Source of the DNA: a virus
Direction: 5' to 3' (one strand)
Length of the DNA stretch: 64,000 nt
Virus record (IMG/VR): IMGVR_UViG_3300031999_000005
Location: 1 to 64,000 of that record
Of the stretch, positions 2,163-63,735 are shown in pieces; position 1 is the first letter of the stretch, and each line of letters starts with the position of its first letter. Position numbers and translations under genes: made by a program. The notes beneath the pieces are model-generated. The model ran no database searches. It saw only the letters and a list, made by a program, of their open reading frames with translations, and was not told where the DNA came from.

Positions 2163-3192
2163 ACCGGCGAACCTGGAATGCCTGCATTGCCACCGGACGG
2201 ACTTCAAAGATTCGGCCGGCCTGAAGCGCCACATCACCCGTGCACACACGCATCTCAATGTGGAATTGCCAACTCCGGTCGATGACCTACAGAAAAAGCC
2301 GATCATCTACACCTCGTATTCCGGCTTTGAGGTGCGGGATTTCAGCTATTCGATGGCGAACGACATTGCAGAATGCGGCTGGCGCGCACGGGCAAAGCGC
2401 ATCTACGGGTGGACATCTATAAAGGATAAGGCCGCACTGCACTTCGGGGATTGCATTGAAGAGGCTCTCATGTGGCACTTCGATGATGAGCGGCGCATGG
2501 AGATGCCCGCAGCGTTCGAGTTTCTCTGGAAAGAATACAAGGATGCCGACCTGATCTATACAGAGAAGGACGGCAACTGGCAGGAAATGATGGACATGGG
2601 TATGCGGCTCTCCGACCAGTTTGTGTCGGATTTCAAGAGCGGCGAATTCACCCGCGATACTGTGGGATTCGTGAATCCGCGATTCGGGATGGAATTTCCC
2701 AAGCCGAGCGAACCTCACGAGTGGTACAACGGAACGACGCTGCGTTACAAGGCCGACGCTGTGTGTTGCCCAAGCGAACTTGCCGGGTTCGTGCGAACCC
2801 TGGTTGACGTGAAGACCTCGGCATCATCCTACCCAGAGAAAGAAAAGAATGCAGGAATCATCGCGCTGGACCGGCAGCTTCGCGTGGGTGCTCTTGCGAG
2901 TGGTCTCCGCAATGTGGGGTTCCTGGTCTTCGTGAAGAGCAAGAAACCGAAGGTCCAATGGCTGACAGGATTCATAACGGATGAACTGTTGCGGGACATT
3001 GACCTGTGGCTGCGTGAACAGTACCACAAGTGGTTGAACCGCCGATTCCACCGTTCACCCGGCATCCGGTTTCCGCAGGAACAGTGCATGGCCTGTGAAT
3101 TTTTCCCGTTGTGCATCGGCCGACCAGACTTGGCGGGGGGTCTGCGGCAGAAGGAATCGAAGAAGACGGGTTCGCTGAACGTGCTGGATTGA
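2134..3192 (+). CDS. PD-(D/E)XK Cas4/RecB-like exonuclease with N-terminal C2H2 zinc finger
   Basis: CxxC...HxxxxH finger, HFGDCIEEAL, KADAV...DVKTS, QL motif, C-terminal CxxCEFxxxC cluster. Confidence 0.8.
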   Translation: MSEKKTKVSEPANLECLHCHRTDFKDSAGLKRHITRAHTHLNVELPTPVDDLQKKPIIYTSYSGFEVRDFSYSMANDIAECGWRARAKRIYGWTSIKDKAALHFGDCIEEALMWHFDDERRMEMPAAFEFLWKEYKDADLIYTEKDGNWQEMMDMGMRLSDQFVSDFKSGEFTRDTVGFVNPRFGMEFPKPSEPHEWYNGTTLRYKADAVCCPSELAGFVRTLVDVKTSASSYPEKEKNAGIIALDRQLRVGALASGLRNVGFLVFVKSKKPKVQWLTGFITDELLRDIDLWLREQYHKWLNRRFHRSPGIRFPQEQCMACEFFPLCIGRPDLAGGLRQKESKKTGSLNVLD

Positions 3193-3205
3193 AAGGAGTA
3201 GTGAA

Positions 3206-3559
3206 ATGAGCTTATTCAAAATCGGCCCCGTTGTTAACGAAGTCCCACCCTGTTTCGCTCAGGCTAGTTCTGGGTTTGGTCCCATTCTGAAGCGACTCCG
3301 TGCCCTATACAAAGGGCAATGGCTGACCATCGAGTTCAAGGATTCCAAAACGGCAGAAAAAGCATGCGATTTCCTAGTCGGGGAACTCGCTCTTGAACAG
3401 GCGAAGTTAATGAATGATTCCATGGCTGACTTTAATGCCTGCGCAGAGACAATCTCTGGAGATTTCAAGATGAACTATGGGCGGGATCAAGATGGCGAAT
3501 TGACTACTCTATATGCTCAGGGAATCAAGCGGGGGACACCACCCAAAGCGGACCTGTAG
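3206..3559 (+). CDS. Hypothetical protein
   Basis: SD aaaggag, ATG start. Confidence 0.6.
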   Translation: MSLFKIGPVVNEVPPCFAQASSGFGPILKRLRALYKGQWLTIEFKDSKTAEKACDFLVGELALEQAKLMNDSMADFNACAETISGDFKMNYGRDQDGELTTLYAQGIKRGTPPKADL

Positions 3560-3660
3560 GCGTCGGCCGGACACTCATTGGATGTTACGTGAAGGGCGCC
3601 TTGCAACTTTACCGCCTTCGCATCCAGGAACCAAAGATTGAGCACGATACGAGGTGAACG

Positions 3661-3903
3661 ATGTGGGACGCTAACCAGTGGCAGGAATTCTTCAACGGCC
3701 ACGGCAGCAATTTCGACAATCTGGCCGCGGCGCTGACCAAGGGTGAGATCGCCGATTCGGATGCCATCGTGGAATCCCTTGTCAGGCTTCAGGCCGGTAC
3801 CGTACTTCGGGTGGCCATGGAGAATACCTATACGATGGTCCGGCTGATGGGGAGAATGATCGGGGAGAAAACGGTGTTCCCGATTGGAGGGAAGCCGTCG
3901 TGA
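3661..3903 (+). CDS. Hypothetical protein
   Basis: SD gaggtg; ends in GGKPS like the next gene. Confidence 0.6.
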   Translation: MWDANQWQEFFNGHGSNFDNLAAALTKGEIADSDAIVESLVRLQAGTVLRVAMENTYTMVRLMGRMIGEKTVFPIGGKPS

Positions 3904-12988: not shown

Positions 12989-13275
12989 CCATGGAAGACC
13001 TGGACAGGACTTTGCTGAATGATCTGGTCTCGCGACCTGAAGCCCTGCAACACGTACTTGAACTGCTCCAGATGTCGGACGATCCTGATGCTGCGATGGT
13101 GTGCTTTGAGGCTTTGCACAAAGCCTGCAAAGAGAAAGGCATTGATTTTGGGATCGCCGTTGCCAAGTCTGTCAAGAACGTGAATGAGAAACTGTCGGCT
13201 TTGCGTAGCAAGGAACCGCTGAAGTTTGACGGTGGTAAAACCTTGCGATCTGCGATTATTTTTAGTAGCGGGTGA
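12982..13275 (+). CDS. Hypothetical protein (paralog of 12254-12547)
   Basis: SD aaggag; shared motifs. Confidence 0.65.
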   Translation: MLTMEDLDRTLLNDLVSRPEALQHVLELLQMSDDPDAAMVCFEALHKACKEKGIDFGIAVAKSVKNVNEKLSALRSKEPLKFDGGKTLRSAIIFSSG

Positions 13276-13354
13276 GGGACTCGGACCCTCCGGGGCACCC
13301 CGATCTAGGGCGGCTTCAGGTTTATAGGACCCGCCTGCACACCCGTGCTACCCG

Positions 13355-14083
13355 CTATTTGGAAGGAAAGAGACCACGTAACCAGGACCAGACCTTGGCG
13401 CCCTCACTCAACACCAGCCCACCAATCCGCACCGCAAACGAACCCGGCCGCGTGGCACGGTGAACAGCGTCCTTCAAATCAGTGCTCACCTGCACACCGT
13501 TGTCGGCAATCGTGATTCCGTCCCGGCTGATGGTTTCCAGGTGCTTGCTGCTTTCAGCGATGGCCTGCAATGCCACAGGGATGTTGGGATCGGCCAGCAC
13601 CTTCCGCAGGTCCTGAAGGGCAAGAGTGGCATTTTCGGCCAGGGGCTTCACATCCGCAGCAGTCTGTTGGATAGCCTTGGCTGAGGCATCGGAGACTTTG
13701 CCGATGTCGTTGGAAGTATTCAGCACGGATCGCGTTATGGCAGGAATCAGTGCCCCGTTGACGGCTTGGTCGGTATTCTCCACCAGTTGGGTCAATTGAG
13801 ATTCAAGCACGATCAGCTTGTCGAGCGATTCCTTGGTCTTCTGGAGGGATTCCGTGGTGGCCTTGGCTTGTACGACCGATGCCTTCTTCCATTCTTCGGT
13901 AGCTTTGCGCAGGTCTGCTGAGACTCCCCCAATGGATAACACCACGCGCCGAGTGTCGGTTAGGAGAGGGCGAAGACCTTCGGTGAGCGTCCAAGCCAGC
14001 CGAGCGATTGAAAGGCAAGTGAGAATCCCCGCGACCAAGAGCAGGTCGCGGAGGATTTCACGAAGAGATGGACGGATGTTCAC
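13355..14083 (-). CDS. Membrane-anchored coiled-coil protein in lysis cassette (spanin-like candidate)
   Basis: N-terminal TM segment, long heptad region, downstream of hydrolase and holin-like genes. Confidence 0.55.
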   Translation of the reverse strand: MNIRPSLREILRDLLLVAGILTCLSIARLAWTLTEGLRPLLTDTRRVVLSIGGVSADLRKATEEWKKASVVQAKATTESLQKTKESLDKLIVLESQLTQLVENTDQAVNGALIPAITRSVLNTSNDIGKVSDASAKAIQQTAADVKPLAENATLALQDLRKVLADPNIPVALQAIAESSKHLETISRDGITIADNGVQVSTDLKDAVHRATRPGSFAVRIGGLVLSEGAKVWSWLRGLFPSK

Positions 14084-20208: not shown

Positions 20209-20330
20209 TGTTGAAACTCCATCGGCACGTGACCACTCCGTCGCTTTTAGGCGACGGCTTCTCGGGTTACGCATGAGCTTACTGCCTCTACGTTAGCGCC
20301 CGAAAGCCTGATCCAGGCTCGTTGCAAAAT
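20209..20330 (-). ncRNA. TnpB omegaRNA (scaffold overlapping tnpB 3' end plus guide); 5' limit approximate
   Basis: Right-end hairpin CCGTCGC-CTAAAA-GCGACGG and GTCAC terminus (20229-20233); predicted guide GTGCCGATGGAGTTTCAACA. Confidence 0.75.
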
Positions 20331-21386
20331 GACCATGGCGGACGCATGATCGCGTCCCAAAGACAACCCGCAAGAGGGGCAGTGGTGCCAGCGGTCCTTC
20401 AACCGCTTTGGCACATTCGCACCGCACACGCACACTTGGCTCGTTCCCCGTGGGTCCACCTTCACAAAACACCTATCAGCATCCTCCGCTTTATAAGCGA
20501 TTTTGCTCAGGAATTCAGACCAGCCTGCGTCATTCACGGACTTCGCCAGTCGGCTCGCCGCAAGGCCCTTTACGTTCAAATCTTCAACGGCAATCGTGCC
20601 GTACCCGTTCACAATCCGCCGGGAAACTTTGTGGTGGAAATCCGCCCGCTGATTACGCACATGGGCGTGGGCACGCTGGAGCAGCAGCACCGCTTTGCGG
20701 CGACGGTGGCCACCTTTTTTCCGTCGTGCCACGCGGCGCTGCGCCCGCCGCAACTTGGCTTGCGCTTTGCGATAGCACCGGGGATTCTTGATCTCCGTTC
20801 CATCAGAAAGCGTAGCGAAGGCTGTCAACCCCACATCAATTCCAGCAACGTTGCTGTTCGGCTCAAGTGGTTTAGGGTCTCTCTCCACGGTGAAGCACAC
20901 GAACCACCGCCCCGCCTCTCGTTTAATCGTGGTGGTTTTGATTTTACCTTCTACTGGACGATGCAATTTGATTTTGATTTCGCCTGTCCCTTGGACATAT
21001 AGTTTATCAATCTTGAGGAGTTTACAACCATTGCCGTATATCGGGAATGTGATGCTGTCATAGCGACGGCTGGAGCGATAGCGTGGGAACCCTGGCGTCT
21101 GCCCTCTCTTAATACGATGAAAGAAATCCTTAAAAGCTCTGTCCAACCGCCGCAGTACGTTTTGAGCACAATGGTGATTGGCCAGCCGAAGCAATTCCTC
21201 ATCTCGCATGGGCTTCAATTGCCTTGCTTGATCGTAATAGCTGATCGACTTGCGGCAGGTCTTCCAGGCCCCGATGCGCTCTTGAAGCGCGCAGTTGTAA
21301 AGGTCACAGGCTTCGCGGAGTTGTTCCTCCAGGAAAACTCCTTGCGCTTTGGTCGGGTAGAGCCGGTATTTGAATGCCAGCCGCAT
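20247..21386 (-). mobile_element. tnpB: IS200/IS605-family TnpB RNA-guided nuclease (no TnpA)
   Basis: AFKYRLYP, LYNCAL, GIDVGL (RuvC I), VEDL (RuvC II), TSQVC..C / CPSC zinc finger, RDH (RuvC III). Confidence 0.93.
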
Positions 21387-21387
21387 C

Positions 21388-21528
21388 TCACTCGACCTTG
21401 CGCTTTTTTGCCAGATCACGAATCCCTATTTCCAGGGCGGCGGCTTGGCTTATCCCGAGTTTCGACGCCAGCAACTTCAACAGTCGAAGTGCCTCTGGCG
21501 TCAATCGAAAACCGGCTGCATGTTTCAT
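21388..21528 (-). CDS. CopG/RHH-like small regulator upstream of tnpB
   Basis: GFRLTPEA...LGISQAAALEIGIR; TTGACA-18-TACACT promoter at 21564-21535. Confidence 0.7.
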   Translation of the reverse strand: MKHAAGFRLTPEALRLLKLLASKLGISQAAALEIGIRDLAKKRKVE

Positions 21529-21628
21529 GTAAGCAGTGTACGGCTGAACGCAATACAATGTCAAGAGGAAAAATACAGGGCAACGCACTAATCTGCGCTT
21601 GCCCTTCGGCACATCCAAATTTGGATGT

Positions 21629-48646: not shown

Positions 48647-49497
48647 AGCGCCAACATCCAAATTTGGACATGCCGAAGGGCAAGCGCAAGTTCCACTGGA
48701 AGAGAGTCAACTACGCCTTGTTCGTCACGATTCGCAAGACGCCGAAGTTGGAAGCCTCTGCCGTCTACGGTCGTGCCATCGGGTTGAGGAAGGACGGCCA
48801 GACGTTTTCTGCGCTGGCCGCGTTGCCCTGGATCATCCCAAGGAAATTCGACTGGCGCCCGATAGCCAAGGCCCGCCTGGATTCTTTTCTTCTCGCAGAT
48901 TGCCGCTGCAAATCGGAGGGTTCCGAAGTCACCACCTGCAAGATGCACCACGGGATACGAGGAAAGTGGTTGGCCGAAGACGCCAAGAGAACCAAAGAAC
49001 TGCCAGCACAGCCAAATCTCTCGCTTGATTCTGGGCCGGTGTCTGGCTTCAGGGTGATGAACAGAAACTATCCCTGGTGCGTGATGATCCTGGAGAAGAA
49101 CGAGTGGTTCTGCGACATCTGCAAGGCCGCACACCCAGCGCATGAGGACAACCCGAGCTACCGGAATCAATTCATCCTGAGACATTCCCATTGCGGATTT
49201 CCGGCGGCGGGATATGCAGAATCGCTGCGGAAGTGCAATCTCAGCACATGGGCAGACGCAGCGGCTGAGGCCAGGAAGCGCATAGATGAAGCTAGAAGGC
49301 GGGCAGACAAGGTTGAGGGAGAAGTGCAAGGTTATCGTCTCTTGGAGGTAGCCTTCAAAGAAATCTCTGCCGGTCGGTGCAATCCATACCTTCCTGAGCG
49401 AATGTCCTTTGAGGAAGTGGTCCAGCATGCTGTAGGGGAAGGGGTGGCGATTCCCGAATCGCTACGCCCGCAACTGTTGGAGGGAAAGAGCCGATGA
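48643..49497 (+). CDS. Hypothetical protein
   Basis: Long ORF overlapping neighbours at both ends. Confidence 0.55.
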   Translation: MKRQHPNLDMPKGKRKFHWKRVNYALFVTIRKTPKLEASAVYGRAIGLRKDGQTFSALAALPWIIPRKFDWRPIAKARLDSFLLADCRCKSEGSEVTTCKMHHGIRGKWLAEDAKRTKELPAQPNLSLDSGPVSGFRVMNRNYPWCVMILEKNEWFCDICKAAHPAHEDNPSYRNQFILRHSHCGFPAAGYAESLRKCNLSTWADAAAEARKRIDEARRRADKVEGEVQGYRLLEVAFKEISAGRCNPYLPERMSFEEVVQHAVGEGVAIPESLRPQLLEGKSR

Positions 49498-58702: not shown

Positions 58703-59086
58703 ATGCCGCCGCAACCACTTGATGCTCCTCCAATGCTCCCGTCCGAAGTCTCGTCACAGTTGGGGGCCGCCCCTTTTGCCGGGGTGACCGCGAATCTTTC
58801 CGACAGGTTAGGTGCGCCCCCACCTGCCGGCGGGGTCAACCCCACGGGATCAATTGACGCGATGGCGGATGCGGTCAAGACGATCGTGCAACGGATGGCG
58901 TCCATGGCCCCGGTATTTGCCCCGTTCGGGACCCGGATATCTACGGTTCTCGATTTGGGGATGTCTGAAGTCAAATCGCAAGGAGCGCCAGGAATGGGTC
59001 CTCAGCCTGCTGCTGGTCCACCGCCGGGAGTCGGTGGGGCAGCGATGCGGGAAGGACCGCCCCCAGGGGCAAACGTTCCAGCGTAG
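58703..59086 (+). CDS. Pro/Gly-rich head-region protein
   Basis: SD gagga; located between portal and scaffold. Confidence 0.65.
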   Translation: MPPQPLDAPPMLPSEVSSQLGAAPFAGVTANLSDRLGAPPPAGGVNPTGSIDAMADAVKTIVQRMASMAPVFAPFGTRISTVLDLGMSEVKSQGAPGMGPQPAAGPPPGVGGAAMREGPPPGANVPA

Positions 59087-59107
59087 CCGCAGGCGAAGGA
59101 GACTTGT

Positions 59108-60055
59108 GTGGCATTACCGGAAGCAATTGAAGAGATGCTGAAGACCCTTCCCGCAGAGGATCAGGAGGCTCTGCGCCCACGCTTCGAGAAGCACCAACCA
59201 CTCCGCGATGGCTACCTGCGCCAGAACGAATTTGACCGCAAGTTCAACGAGTGGAAAGAGCAGAAGGAGAAAGAGCAGGCCGCGATTGAAGCCCGCAAGG
59301 CGGAGATCGAAAAGGCAATCGCAGAACCCAGGGATTGGCTGAAACGCAATAAGAGCAAACACGACCAACTCCTTACTGAACACAAGGCCCTGGAAACAGC
59401 GAACCAGGAACTGACGGCGCAACTCGAAGCGGCAGAAGCAGCACGAAATAACGGGAGGGAAACGGACATGGACGAAGCAGCAGTGAAAGCAGCGGCGCAA
59501 GCCGTAGTGGACGAGCGCGTGAAGGCGCTCAAGGCAGAGCAGGCTGGCTACATCACGCAGAAGCAGATGGACGATATCGTGAAAAGCACCACGGACCAGT
59601 TCTTCGCGGTGACTCTTCCGAACTCAATGAATTTCGCCTCAGCCGTGTTGGATTGCCAGTTGGAGCATCGGCAGGAATTTGGTGAACGCTTGGACCGCAG
59701 CAAATTTGCGGAGTGGATGCAGAAAAAGTTGGAGGAGACGAAGAACCCCATGTATGGGGACCCCTACGTAGCCTACAACGAATACATGGCACCACGGCGC
59801 GCTGAAGCCACCGAGAAAAAGCGCCAGAAGGACCTGGACGACGCCCGCACTGAGGGTGCCGAAAAGGCCCGCAAAGAATTCGCCGCAACCGCAGGCGTAC
59901 CGGGGAGTGGCGTTCCGCCAGCCCCATCAGAACTTGGTCCAATGCAGAGGCACGTTCTCGGCAAAGACGTACAATTGCCGGCGGGCGTGGAGATCGGCGA
60001 TGGCCGCGCAGCGATGGCGGCTGCCGAATCGCTCCGTGCTGAGGGCAAGTTCTGA
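59108..60055 (+). CDS. Capsid scaffolding protein (putative)
   Basis: Acidic coiled coil, GYLRQNEFDRK, directly upstream of capsid. Confidence 0.75.
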   Translation: MALPEAIEEMLKTLPAEDQEALRPRFEKHQPLRDGYLRQNEFDRKFNEWKEQKEKEQAAIEARKAEIEKAIAEPRDWLKRNKSKHDQLLTEHKALETANQELTAQLEAAEAARNNGRETDMDEAAVKAAAQAVVDERVKALKAEQAGYITQKQMDDIVKSTTDQFFAVTLPNSMNFASAVLDCQLEHRQEFGERLDRSKFAEWMQKKLEETKNPMYGDPYVAYNEYMAPRRAEATEKKRQKDLDDARTEGAEKARKEFAATAGVPGSGVPPAPSELGPMQRHVLGKDVQLPAGVEIGDGRAAMAAAESLRAEGKF

Positions 60056-60089
60056 AGTCGTGCCCCGCATGGGGTGCGTGGAAGAAACC

Positions 60090-60190
60090 GGGTGGGGAAC
60101 CCGCCTTCAGGAGTTAACGTAGAGGTTGTAAACTCATGCGTTTCCTGAGAAGCCCTTTTGGACAGTTCACCACTGCCCATCGGAAGGCCA
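60090..60190 (+). ncRNA. Orphan TnpB omegaRNA-like scaffold plus putative guide
   Basis: Aligns with the tnpB 3' end at 20229-20310; ends TTCAC at 60170. Confidence 0.65.
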
Positions 60191-60317
60191 TTCAGCCCCA
60201 GCCGATTGGGGAGCAGCGATTAAGAGGCCCGCAGAGCCGGAAGTCGGAGTGAACGCAGCCGGCGGCGGATGATTCTAACCCTCAAAATCCCTGCCCCTTT
60301 GTCGGGGCAAAAGGAGG

Positions 60318-62482
60318 ATGGCCTTCCCGGTGGGAGGGCCAACATACCAAATGGCACTCACTTGGGGTGATTTAACTTCAAAAACCAATAGCCATATCGT
60401 GCCACGCTTGATTGACACGATCTACCGCACGTCCGCTCTGCTGACGCGCATCAGGACGCGCAACACCGAGCGGTTCGAAGGCGGGGATTCTCTCAAGGTT
60501 CCCATCATGCACGCCGAACTGAAGGGCGGTCCCTTCACTCGCGGCGGCACCTTCGATTGCTCGTATGTCGAGTCCGATACGGCCCTCAATTTCTTGATGA
60601 AGCCGTATTACGTCAACGTTTCCATCTACGGCCTGGACTGTGCGCTGAACCGCGGTCCCGAAGCCGCAATGACGATCATTGACTCGAAGATGGCGAACGC
60701 CGGCGGGAAGATGGCGAAGTTGCTGGCAACCGATATGTACCTGGACGGCCAGGGCACCGCTTCTTCGGCCATCGCATTGGATGGATTTTCCGGAGCCCTA
60801 GACGATGGAAGTAATTTTCCAGTTTACGGCCAAATCACCCGGACGGATCTTTCCGCCACGGCGAACACCGGCATCAACGCCTACTACAAGGTGGTGGCCA
60901 CGCTGTCCCTGAAGGAAGTGCAGACGGCCTTCGGAAGCACGTGGTTCGGCGGAGAACACGCGGATCTGCTCACCACCACCCAGGCCGTGTGGGACATCTG
61001 GTGGAACAAACTGCAACCGCAACAGCGGTTCAACGAAGAGTCCAGCGATGTGGGCAAAATCGGCTTTCAATCGTTCAGGTACAATTCCGCTCAGGTAGTG
61101 GTTGACCAGCATTGCCCAGCGGGCAAACTCTGGTTCCTGAACATGAAGTACGTGAACCTGTACCTGAGCACGATGCCGCAATTCCAGTTCGGGTTCACAG
61201 GATCAACTTTCGGTCCCCTTTCAAGCACCGTCAGCGAAGGAATGACGGTAAACTAGGAAGGAAAATTCTGCTATATGCTGGGACAACAGGTCATGCCGAG
61301 CTACTTACAAGGTAAAAAGGCGACGGATAATCCTGTCAATCAGCAAGGAAGAATCGTTCAAATTGCTCGTCTCGCAGGAATCTTTGATTGCGAGGGATGC
61401 TTCTACCTGAACCGCTATGGTCGGTCTCATGATTGCTATTCCGTGGTTGCGAGAGTCAGCAACTCGAATATGCGGATCATCGAGGAAGTTTGCTCTACAC
61501 TGTCGGTTCTGGGTTTCAAGTACAACAGAACTGATGGTCTGCCGACAGGAATGGGCGGTCGGGTGTCGGAAATTAGGCTGCATGGGACAAAGAGGGCGAA
61601 GCCGCTTATCGAACTCATCGCCCCGTATCTGTCAGCCAAATCCCGCGTTACTGACCTTCTGAAGATGTTTTGGGAACGCAGAGATTCAGTAGCGTATGGG
61701 GCATCCTACACAGAAGAAGATTTCAGAATTCACCGGGCTGTCCGGGCAGTCAATTCCAACGGCACAGCAAAGGACATACCCGTTGGAGATCATCTGGAAT
61801 TGGTTGGACCGTCGAGAGTAGCACGGCTTGGAGAGGTGGAAGCGAAAGCCAAACTTGCAGCCATCGTGGAATGCGATGGTTCTCTCGGCCTGACTAATCT
61901 GAGGAATGGGGAGAACTACATGCCAGCGATTTACATGGTGAACACGAACGAATCTTTGCTTGCAGAGATTCGTCAATCACTGGCTATGCTTGGAATTCCC
62001 TACTACTTCCAGATGAGACCGCCACGAGGCATTTCGATCAAGGCCATCGGTGAATTCCACATTCAGGGAATGAAGCGTGCCAAGCGGTTCCTGGATGCCA
62101 TAGGTGATTATTTCGTAGCCTACGCGGAACGGGCAAAATTGATTCGGCAATTCATCAATCGTCGGCTTTCTCTCCCGGCCAACTATCCGTATTCGGAAGT
62201 TGAGCGGGAGATCAAGAGGGCCTTGGACGAAGAGAAACCGAAGAGCGATTCCCTTCAACGACTGCACGCAGAACCGGGCAAGTCCCGGATGATACAGTCT
62301 GTTCTGCATGGAGACATGCAGACGGCGGCAGAAATGACCGCCGCGCTCGCGTAAGCGAGAGGTAACAGCAAGGGAAGGAAAATCAATTCTCGATTGATGT
62401 GGCCGGGCAGTACCTGTTCCTTGGCAACATCGTCGTAACCGCGCCTCGGCTGATGGCGCAGATAAGTGGAATAACTGGTTGA
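60318..62482 (+). CDS. Major capsid protein, spliced: join(60318..61203,62373..62482); alternative start 60351
   Basis: Splicing gives FGFTG-W-KENQFSIDVAGQYLFLGNIVVTAPRLMAQISGITG; located after scaffold. Confidence 0.88.
61204..62372 (+). mobile_element. Group I intron
   Basis: P1 GGAU/GUCC with U.G; P ATGCTGGGA, Q AATCAGCAAGG, R TCAACGACT, S GATACAGTC; terminal G. Confidence 0.9.
61275..62354 (+). CDS. Intron-encoded double-motif LAGLIDADG homing endonuclease (start uncertain)
   Basis: LAGIFDCEG and LAAIVECDG. Confidence 0.9.
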   Translation: MLGQQVMPSYLQGKKATDNPVNQQGRIVQIARLAGIFDCEGCFYLNRYGRSHDCYSVVARVSNSNMRIIEEVCSTLSVLGFKYNRTDGLPTGMGGRVSEIRLHGTKRAKPLIELIAPYLSAKSRVTDLLKMFWERRDSVAYGASYTEEDFRIHRAVRAVNSNGTAKDIPVGDHLELVGPSRVARLGEVEAKAKLAAIVECDGSLGLTNLRNGENYMPAIYMVNTNESLLAEIRQSLAMLGIPYYFQMRPPRGISIKAIGEFHIQGMKRAKRFLDAIGDYFVAYAERAKLIRQFINRRLSLPANYPYSEVEREIKRALDEEKPKSDSLQRLHAEPGKSRMIQSVLHGDMQTAAEMTAALA

Positions 62483-62512
62483 CATGTATCTGATTCTAAG
62501 GGAGTTAGCCAA

Positions 62513-63193
62513 ATGGCAGCTTGCTTAACACTGGGTCAAGCCGGGGTATATAGAGTGATGGCGGAACTCTTGCTCCGCGGTCACAGGCCGTACATTCCGG
62601 CAGTGGACGATCATGGTGTTGATTTGGCTCTTTCCACTGGAGTCAGAATACAGGTCAAGACGGCTCGTCTCCACACCAGGAAGAATTGGCCGAGAAAGCC
62701 AATCTACCATCTGACATTTGGATGGGCACAGATAGGCCGGACGCACATTCCTATCCGCAGAAAGAAGAATTACAGTTCAGAATGCGATTTTCTCATCATC
62801 TACGGTGTTGATGAAAACCGCTTTTGGATTGTTCCTAGCTTCCTGTTGGACGGGAGAACATGCCTGATGCTTGGACCCCGATGCCGAGTTGTTCGTGGGC
62901 AGATAGAGGAACTTCTCGATGTCGGGGTGACGAGAATCGAGGCAGCGAGGAAACTCGGCGTTGATCGGCATACCATCACAAGGCGGTTGAAGGGCGAGGG
63001 AACGAAAAATGGCGGCTTTGTGAGATCAGTCAGAATGTGCGAAGACCAATGGGGACTTTTGGGTTCTCCAGTTTTCGCTCCATTCGTGGGGAACCCGCCC
63101 AGTCTTCCAGGCGGTGAGACGGCCCAACAGAAAACAAGAGAGGAAACACAATGTCAGTCGCTGTCACTAACAACAATCTGCCATACCTCCTGA
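62513..63193 (+). CDS. Free-standing PD-(D/E)XK endonuclease with HTH
   Basis: GQAG...AELLLRG...P.VDDHGVDL...RIQVKT...CDF. Confidence 0.85.
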   Translation: MAACLTLGQAGVYRVMAELLLRGHRPYIPAVDDHGVDLALSTGVRIQVKTARLHTRKNWPRKPIYHLTFGWAQIGRTHIPIRRKKNYSSECDFLIIYGVDENRFWIVPSFLLDGRTCLMLGPRCRVVRGQIEELLDVGVTRIEAARKLGVDRHTITRRLKGEGTKNGGFVRSVRMCEDQWGLLGSPVFAPFVGNPPSLPGGETAQQKTREETQCQSLSLTTICHTS

Positions 63194-63735
63194 TTCCCGA
63201 GATTTCAACCGGCAACGTTGCGACCGTCAACGATGCCTACAGCACCACAATCAGCGCCGCAAACCCCTACGGGAACGGCGCAAAGAATGCACCTGGCGCA
63301 GCGTTTTACGCAGCCGATTCGGCTGGCCGGGTTGCCAAGTACCGCTACGTGCGGCTTTACCCAGGCACGCCACCGGGGGCCTACATCGTGGGGCCGGTTT
63401 ACTGGAAGGACAACACGTTCACCATCGTGACCACCACGCTGTCCAACGCTGTGACGGCCGAGGCAAGCGCCTTTGCCGGCATCCTGCTGCGGGCAGAGGC
63501 CACACCGGCACTGATGACCGGCAACTGGGTGGTGATCCTGGTTCGCGGGTTCCTTGCTGCTCTCGTTGTCGCGGCCAGCCCTACCGCAGGCGATGAAGTA
63601 TACGGGACGGCTGGTGATCAGATACTTAACGGCAAGGTGACCAGCGGCACGGCGCCGAAATTCCCTGGTCATGACATCCGGGCGCTGACCACCAGTGCCA
63701 CGCCCGATGTCTGGGTTGAAGCCGAGGGTGCGTAA
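63151..63735 (+). CDS. Capsid decoration/cement-like structural protein
   Basis: Follows capsid; KYRYVR, W..VRG pattern; SD gagga. Confidence 0.65.
   Translation: MSVAVTNNNLPYLLIPEISTGNVATVNDAYSTTISAANPYGNGAKNAPGAAFYAADSAGRVAKYRYVRLYPGTPPGAYIVGPVYWKDNTFTIVTTTLSNAVTAEASAFAGILLRAEATPALMTGNWVVILVRGFLAALVVAASPTAGDEVYGTAGDQILNGKVTSGTAPKFPGHDIRALTTSATPDVWVEAEGA

Follow-up and report, generated by a model that had tools for sequence, protein, structure and literature searches.

The stretch of DNA analysed here, hereafter the window, comprises the first 64 kb (64,000 nucleotides) of the viral record IMGVR_UViG_3300031999_000005, from a soil phage, which in total is 103,756 bp long and an estimated ~88% complete. 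A gene in the position of a scaffold protein is followed in the window by a non-coding leader and by the interrupted gene of the major head protein:

59108..60055, + strand: upstream gene in the scaffold-protein position; stop codon at 60053-60055, then the leader
60351..61202, + strand: major head protein gene, exon 1, from alignment with 24 homologues
~62375-62482, + strand: continuation of the major head protein gene; C-terminus at 62375-62479 by tblastn of homologues

The major head protein aligns over ~285 residues with more than 300 homologues, and PHROG 9953 (major head protein) was matched by one of these capsid homologues, P0004 (E 1.9e-35). The start methionine of the homologues corresponds to the ATG at 60351, giving an untranslated leader of 295 nt (60056-60350); this start, shared with the relatives in the alignment, replaces the one at 60318. 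The upstream reading frame has no match in Pfam or PHROG and is instead recognised by synteny, with tblastn matches at 24-34% identity directly 5' of the relatives' capsid genes. No tnpB reading frame thus precedes the leader, as had been stated, the place being taken by the syntenic scaffold-position gene of the relatives. GenBank phages gave zero blastn matches to 59000-62400. The capsid gene is interrupted after ...QFGFTG by a 1.17-kb intervening sequence (window 61203-62374) containing a LAGLIDADG-type ORF (61275-62354), and the C-terminal 35 residues resume at ~62375; in this intervening sequence Rfam returned just a weak group I intron match (62288-62319, 17.6 bits).

Related capsid loci were collected by capsid alignment, yielding 79 loci with capsids 51-66% identical to that of the window. 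Their scaffold-to-capsid gaps measure 94-241 nt. The capsid leaders of L147-L218 carry recurring modules of the form GGAAG, short hairpin, GCAGCC, usually in two copies, as well as a CTGCCC-loop-GGGC hairpin just 5' of the ribosome-binding site. These leader motifs recur in the window at 60180-60310, where the hairpin takes the following form:

60291..60309, + strand: native capsid-leader hairpin UGCCCC-UUUGUC-GGGGCA, with equivalents in relic-free relatives

Its counterparts, likewise placed before the ribosome-binding site, are found in the relic-free loci L151, L158, L160, L163 and L218. The TGCCCCG/CGGGGCA pair reported earlier as enclosing the region is indeed present, but it does not mark the limits of an element, since each half lies in its own local hairpin and the 3' arm (60303-60309) is native.

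Some 40 kb upstream, on the opposite strand, lies a tnpB element of the IS200/IS605 type, hereafter the resident element:

20209-20228, - strand: resident guide, directly after the resident scaffold
20229..20339, - strand: resident omegaRNA scaffold (cmsearch, 107.9 bits), stem 4 intact
20247..21386, - strand: resident tnpB, 379 aa from the ATG at 21386
21388..21528, - strand: small ribbon-helix-helix (RHH)-like gene upstream of tnpB
21564-21535, - strand: promoter TTGACA-18 nt-TACACT, preceding the small RHH-like gene

The resident TnpB carries the Pfam domains OrfB_IS605, Cas12f1-like TNB and HTH_OrfB and matches ISDra2 TnpB (8bf8) with an E value of 1.8e-52. Alignment to ISDra2-type TnpB places its RuvC residues at D195, E279 and D357 and shows the zinc-finger CxxC..CxxC pairs to be both kept, and as judged from its sequence this tnpB, ~40 kb from the capsid leader, is apparently active. 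Its nearest cellular relatives are found in Acidobacteriota MAGs (Bryobacteraceae, Terriglobales, Acidiferrales). The small RHH-like gene has a weak match to RHH_3 (E 0.003, below the Pfam cutoff) and one to the transcriptional regulators of PHROG 3887 (E 6e-4).

The resident element is without the left-end hairpin of its family. A hairpin 5' of the RHH gene was considered as a left end and rejected, because 26 nt that overlap with it are duplicated at the start of the ORF at 48672, and the left end of the resident element is therefore degenerate. This duplicate (a palindrome plus GTGCCGAAGGGCAAGCGCA; window 21586-21628(-) and 48650-48690(+)) repeats the start region of that ORF (ATGCCGAAGGGCAAGCGCA, MPKGKRK...), and the duplication suggests that the resident element landed in a paralogous gene start or recombined with one. 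The palindrome RTCCAAATTTGGAY itself occurs in 11 copies, mostly 10-30 nt 5' of gene starts (window 1596, 5539, 9772, 21615, 26797, 37852, 42416, 48658 and 55928; G000 67249 and 97162). Also on this strand, ARAGORN called a 92-nt tRNA-Ile (anticodon TAT) at window 13265-13356(-), where the Rfam tRNA model is silent at its gathering score; the call may be spurious or may point to a tRNA with an intron.

The capsid leader contains a sequence related to the 3' end of the resident tnpB, as the first-pass annotation had noticed. In a search within the viral record, 60103-60154(+) and 20256-20307(-) were 81% identical over 52 nt (E 2.4e-8), and the 11-mer TAACGTAGAGG has its only two sites in the leader and at the tnpB 3' end. 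A 17-nt repeat of 60077-60093 lies within coding sequence at 96881-96897 and was judged to be chance. A covariance-model search, which had been suggested as a check, was carried out with a model (R1) built from 11 tnpB-linked and three gene-less other copies of the family; the leader was left out, and the resident omegaRNA sequence is part of the seed alignment. RNAalifold predicted 23 pairs on this alignment, 15 of them with compensatory changes. R1 matched the leader at window 60074-60170(+) with 66.2 bits (E 1.6e-20, cmsearch), and over the whole 103.7-kb record it gave two matches only, the leader and the resident tnpB 3' end (107.9 bits). Rfam, in contrast, found nothing in the leader at gathering or permissive thresholds, so that no label independent of our custom model is available, and it could be argued that the resemblance is fortuitous or that the region belongs to another RNA family such as a terminator or riboswitch. 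This is effectively refuted by the 66-bit match from a model trained without the leader, by a 27-nt core identical to that of tnpB-linked copies in other contigs, and by covarying stems that lie in register. The leader thus holds an omegaRNA scaffold remnant with the following parts:

60089..60170, + strand: omegaRNA scaffold remnant, structured part (covariance-model match 60074-60170)
60090-60106, + strand: stem 1, with loop GGAAC at 60096-60100
60096..60099, + strand: loop GGAA, 5' strand of a predicted pseudoknot; partner UUCA at 60166-60169, just 5' of the guide position
60107-60113 with 60142-60148, + strand: stem 2
60117-60124 with 60133-60141, + strand: stem 3
GAGAAGC: linker, ahead of stem 4
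60153-60161, + strand: remnant of stem 4, 2 bp
end at 60170, + strand: 3' tail ACAGUUCAC

The remnant is therefore shorter than the 60061-60309 first given for it, its structured part being ~60089-60170, and the central earlier observation, a tnpB-less omegaRNA scaffold in the capsid leader ~40 kb from tnpB, is borne out by the R1 match and the retained stems. In the R1 alignment the leader copy retains all base pairs of the three stems, and stems 1-3 were recovered in its minimum free energy (MFE) fold. It also has the AACGU..GCGU core conserved in the family, together with the GAGAAGC linker and the ..UCAC end. The compensatory change described before is real: UCGGG/CCCGA in the resident omegaRNA corresponds to UCAGGAG/UUUCCUGA in the leader, with 7/7 pairs retained, and the same stem covaries among 24 family members. 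Across these 24 sequences pairing in the structure amounts to 93%; its covariation score is 0.45 versus 0.16 for shuffled alignments (0/500 as good), and slid controls were all below 53% paired. Of 28 positions invariant across the 11 tnpB-linked members, 27 are kept in the leader copy, the single missed position falling within a deleted hairpin, while the other gene-less copies examined retain 18-26 and so all lie below it. The deleted hairpin is stem 4, the right-end hairpin (5-7 bp in the family), whose loss had also been seen at first pass: 16 model positions are reduced to 5 nt, with 2 bp remaining.

The family alignment also contains a pseudoknot helix (A6 columns 28-30 with 128-130), which is paired in 93% of cells and includes one variable pair of five types (U-G, C-G, A-U, G-C and G-U), such that the family loop GGAN can pair with N'UC directly before the guide. 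In the remnant the partners GGAA and UUCAC match, as they do in L016/L231, and the remnant is predicted, by analogy with ISDra2, to form this pseudoknot between the stem-1 loop and the pre-guide bases.

Absent from the leader copy are a recognisable left end, the promoter, the 85-nt 5' domain and both genes. The 82-nt insert lies within the 295-nt non-coding leader with no protein-coding gene inside it, and it neither overlaps nor follows a tnpB 3' end, the nearest tnpB being that at 20247-21386. A further hairpin precedes it:

60059..60078, + strand: 8-bp hairpin CGUGCCCC-GCAU-GGGGUGCG, just 3' of the scaffold-gene stop, from the fold

This hairpin is followed by UGGAAG and so loosely resembles the family left ends, which consist of a hairpin and RGGAAU. 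The conserved outer left-end sequence (of the ATAAATTTTTATGCGAGGGG type) is absent near it, and post-stop hairpins are present in some relatives too; it could be either a native post-stop hairpin or the remnant of a left-end hairpin.

The 79 related loci share the scaffold-capsid layout, yet none carries the remnant and none gave an R1 match above 13.5 bits. Because their leaders nevertheless share the motifs found downstream of it, the remnant is an insertion into a native capsid leader, and the sequence 3' of 60170, the would-be guide included, is native leader. The remnant is single-copy in the 103.7-kb genome. With stem 4 excluded, its identity over scaffold columns is 72% with the resident omegaRNA and 75-78% with several other members of the family; at 72% it does not derive from the resident element by recent copying. 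Descent from an L119-type element was considered and rejected: identity in stem 2 is genuine, yet overall the remnant is just 72-78% identical to any member. The remnant is best called a truncated and immobilised structured remnant, of a known kind of selfish DNA already described in bacteria, namely the gene-less IS200/IS605 derivatives.

The family from which it derives has a consistent layout (L010/L013, L015, L016 and the window) of left-end hairpin and promoter, RHH-like gene, tnpB, then omegaRNA and right end, and no tnpA was found in the examined loci. A 46-aa RHH-like gene, preceded by a sigma-70-type promoter within the left end, stands regularly 5' of tnpB (L010, L011, L015). Searched with a pattern of the 27-nt core, other contigs show the motif both at the 3' ends of tnpB genes and in gene-less loci; a degenerate motif scan of viral contigs returned mostly chance matches and five usable new tnpB-linked loci. 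In L009 the TnpB is 43% identical to the resident TnpB and the 27-nt core is identical to that of the remnant; as far as these sequences go, the omegaRNA core is more conserved across the family than the TnpB protein. In 6/9 elements an ATA-rich left end is preceded by a flank with CC as its last bases, a tentative hint at a target-adjacent motif (TAM). Viral TnpB homologues of L012 / L014 (~2501-3700) are 58% identical, with a match that stops at residue 366; a ribosome-binding site and a new gene come next, the GAGAAGC/TCAC omegaRNA motifs are absent, and these proteins may have diverged or been domesticated.

In the Acidobacteriota MAGs that carry the family, gene-less copies are common and range over every stage of decay. 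One Acidiferrales MAG has eight R1 matches, at least four of them tnpB-less complete mini-elements, and others visibly decayed with core deletions. Further gene-less copies lie in the viral contigs L008 and L257 and the MAG contigs L022 and L025. L008, L233, L238 and L240 are full mini-elements with the promoter and the 85-nt 5' domain. A missing stem 4 is seen again in other copies borne by phages, both in the tnpB-linked L256, from a phage with three tnpB copies, and in the gene-less L257. The former lies in a 66.6-kb phage record (G008, IMGVR_UViG_3300044801_000206; L119, L255 and L256) with three omegaRNA copies, at least two tnpB-linked, where stem 4 is gone from the copy at 117-213 (GAGAAGC-GAACGGTAG-TTCAC) even though a tnpB reading frame precedes it. 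The latter, on an unrelated 86-kb viral contig (IMGVR_UViG_3300048790_000078, 7230-7348), stands right after a small ORF; its stem 4 is likewise absent, and its pseudoknot partners, GGAA and UUCAC, are the same as those of the remnant.

In all family members the guide position has the same relation to the ...TCAC end, which in the remnant places a guide in the native leader:

60171..60190, + strand: would-be guide CACTGCCCATCGGAAGGCCA, native capsid-leader flank

As the first-pass annotation had it, these 20 nt are unlike the resident guide, and a second copy is absent from the whole 103.7-kb record. No target of either guide, leader or resident, was found in the phage record, and none of the would-be guide in the related phages; searches of viral, metagenome and genome collections with exact 20-mers, for targets or relic-free alleles, returned the same virus and chance matches only.

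These searches bear on the possibility that the remnant is maintained as a second guide, which the resident TnpB would use in trans to cut relic-free competitors at the capsid leader, leading to homing or exclusion, the loss of the transposition hairpins having fixed the element in place. Several observations would fit such a role: all scaffold pairs and 27/28 invariant bases survive, the lost parts either serve transposition or are dispensable in ISDra2, stem 4 is also lost in L256 and L257, an intact nuclease is encoded in the same genome, and the idea that nucleases home into co-infecting phages is accepted (PMC13565253 Table 1). We nonetheless consider it unlikely. The collections searched hold no relic-free allele or target, conservation is uninformative with the remnant in 0/79 relatives, and palindromes delete easily, so that the hairpin could be lost without any need of selection.

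A second strain (L007, IMGVR_UViG_3300032046_001906) is no help to a maintained guide either. It is 95.4% identical to the window over 14 kb, with divergence distributed as a mosaic, and a 3.8-kb block that includes the remnant (59797-63650) shows one difference, while flanking patches have up to 70 differences per 200 nt. This block is roughly centred on the LAGLIDADG insertion, with 1.4 kb to the left and 1.3 kb to the right, and not on the guide site; judging from this arrangement it is better explained as resembling the co-conversion tract of a homing endonuclease. The identity between the strains is therefore uninformative on selection for the remnant. The zero changes at intact invariant positions bound neutral divergence to less than ~10%, and thus a young dead relic would look alike.

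The native flank that would serve as the guide is also predicted to pair with the region of the capsid start:

60176..60334, + strand: predicted long-range helix, in which 60176-60193 pairs with 60316-60334
60316-60334, + strand: end of the AAGGAGG box and 5' arm of a local hairpin (60319-60341), upstream of the capsid AUG at 60351

In the MFE structure this helix is 18 bp long, and the predicted ensemble gives it ~20.7 expected pairs. The duplex of the guide stretch reaches -35.0 kcal/mol versus -18.8 +/- 4.4 at random genome positions, of which 3/3000 are as good, and when 60074-60190 is blocked or removed in the fold the local 10-bp hairpin at 60319-60341 forms. Leader-to-start pairing was considered as a shared native feature and rejected, comparable pairing being significant in just 3/13 relatives by a crude duplex test. 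The helix is a lead for a cis-regulatory reading, and not a finding. In such a reading, binding or processing by TnpB at the scaffold would free or remove one strand of the helix and so alter translation of the capsid mRNA. The ~20.7 expected pairs, a complementarity that beats 2997/3000 random positions, and an alternative hairpin that forms only when the upstream segment is blocked or removed would be in keeping with this, and TnpB is described as processing transcripts that bear its omegaRNA (PMC10278001). The pairing strand, however, is native flank and not element sequence, the relatives with significant pairing are few, neither predicted state leaves the GGGAGG box at 60332-60337 unpaired, the position of the capsid ribosome-binding site is uncertain and the support consists of predicted folding throughout. 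Regulation in cis thus appears quite improbable. In a more specific form, the would-be guide would at the same time be an inhibitory strand that masks the capsid ribosome-binding region; the grip or trimming of TnpB would withdraw it, the hairpin at 60319-60341 would form and bring the AAGGAGG box beside the AUG, and capsid translation would become TnpB-dependent. This is very improbable, though if true it would mean that a transposon guide RNA has been co-opted as a protein-operated riboregulator.

On balance, the remnant is somewhat probably an immobilised, gene-less leftover of a 'small RHH gene + tnpB' IS200/IS605 element, neutral or selfish and possibly still bindable. An IS200/IS605-type element would have entered the leader that natively precedes the major head protein gene, and deletions would have stripped it of its left end, its promoter, the two genes and the greater part of the right-end hairpin. 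Left over would be ~82 nt of near-complete minimal scaffold, with stem 1 and its pseudoknot loop, stems 2 and 3, the GAGAAGC linker and the UUCAC tail. Lacking its own promoter and oriented in sense, the remnant is probably transcribed within the late scaffold-capsid transcript, and it would persist as selfish or neutral baggage, not as a selected phage tool. Among the options raised by the first-pass annotation a relic in the late mRNA leader, not necessarily a domesticated one, thus fits best; the observation itself is confirmed and its interpretation partly supported.

It is possible, if somewhat doubtful, that the resident TnpB still binds the remnant RNA; its use in trans by this catalytically intact protein is plausible. 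Pointing towards residual function are the conserved core, the recurrence of stem-4 loss and the nature of the lost parts, which serve mobility or are dispensable in ISDra2; against it stand the contact of stem 4 with the protein in ISDra2 and the reported essentiality of the 3' omegaRNA segment. If bound, the complex would carry the 16-20 nt after 60170 and would cut insertion-less copies of the locus, for example in a co-infecting relative, as any IS605 omegaRNA complex would; the phage itself would escape, since in its own copy the target is preceded by the end of the element in place of a TAM.

The scaffold of the family can be mapped onto that of ISDra2. The omegaRNA of ISDra2 has a 116-nt scaffold with stem 1, stem 2 closing stem 3, and stem 4 with a tetraloop; bases -5 to -3 form a pseudoknot with an upstream stretch, stem 4 is contacted by the WED domain, and the 5' region and stem 3b are dispensable (Nakagawa et al., PMC10097598), while the 3' segment is reported to be essential (PMC13639567). 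The window's family shares with ISDra2 (8H1J, 8BF8/8EXA) a homologous protein (E ~1e-52) and the same layout of stems 1-4, pseudoknot and guide, but has a shorter stem 3 and carries the pseudoknot strand in the small stem-1 loop (GGAN). The remnant differs further in lacking stem 4, the WED contact of ISDra2.

Closest to the remnant among known elements are the PATEs (palindrome-associated transposable elements) and PATE-like minimal IS200/IS605 elements of Geobacillus stearothermophilus (Meers et al., PMC10055086). PATEs 'often encode omegaRNAs', which must then be used in trans (PMC10055086), and like them the remnant is gene-less, sets its scaffold beside a new flank and would depend on a TnpB encoded elsewhere. 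Unlike them, it has no recognisable left end and a right-end hairpin of 2 bp, and so cannot be a mobile PATE; nor has it a promoter of its own, lying instead in the sense orientation inside a phage late-gene leader. The signs of mobility that mark PATEs are missing too, the remnant being single-copy with no relic-free allele found. The full mini-elements of its own family (L008, viral; L025/L238, L233 and L240, Acidiferrales MAG) are likewise tnpB-less, have the same core and are 72-75% identical to the remnant, but they keep the left-end hairpin, a TGGTACACT-type promoter, the 85-nt 5' domain and the right-end hairpin, none of which is recognisable in the remnant.

Homing into co-infecting phages is a listed mode for transposon nucleases (PMC13565253). 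If its guide were used, the remnant would resemble the T4 seg/mob and intron homing endonuclease genes (PMC13565253) in cutting the insertion-less allele and spreading with flanking markers; it would differ from them in that recognition would be RNA-guided and the nuclease would be encoded 40 kb away. We saw no evidence of co-conversion or marker exclusion events attributable to the remnant site.

The elements with an RHH gene and tnpB but no tnpA form a little-described family in Acidobacteriota and their phages, and as it stands the remnant is mainly one more case, clean and heavily truncated, of a class known from bacteria. Should the resident TnpB use its RNA, this would be a compact natural case of one viral nuclease with two guides; it would also exemplify selfish DNA reduced to a guide, which spreads by cleaving competing phages in the leader of a head gene. 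Stem 4 would then be dispensable for guiding in this family, which would be of some use for the design of minimal omegaRNAs.
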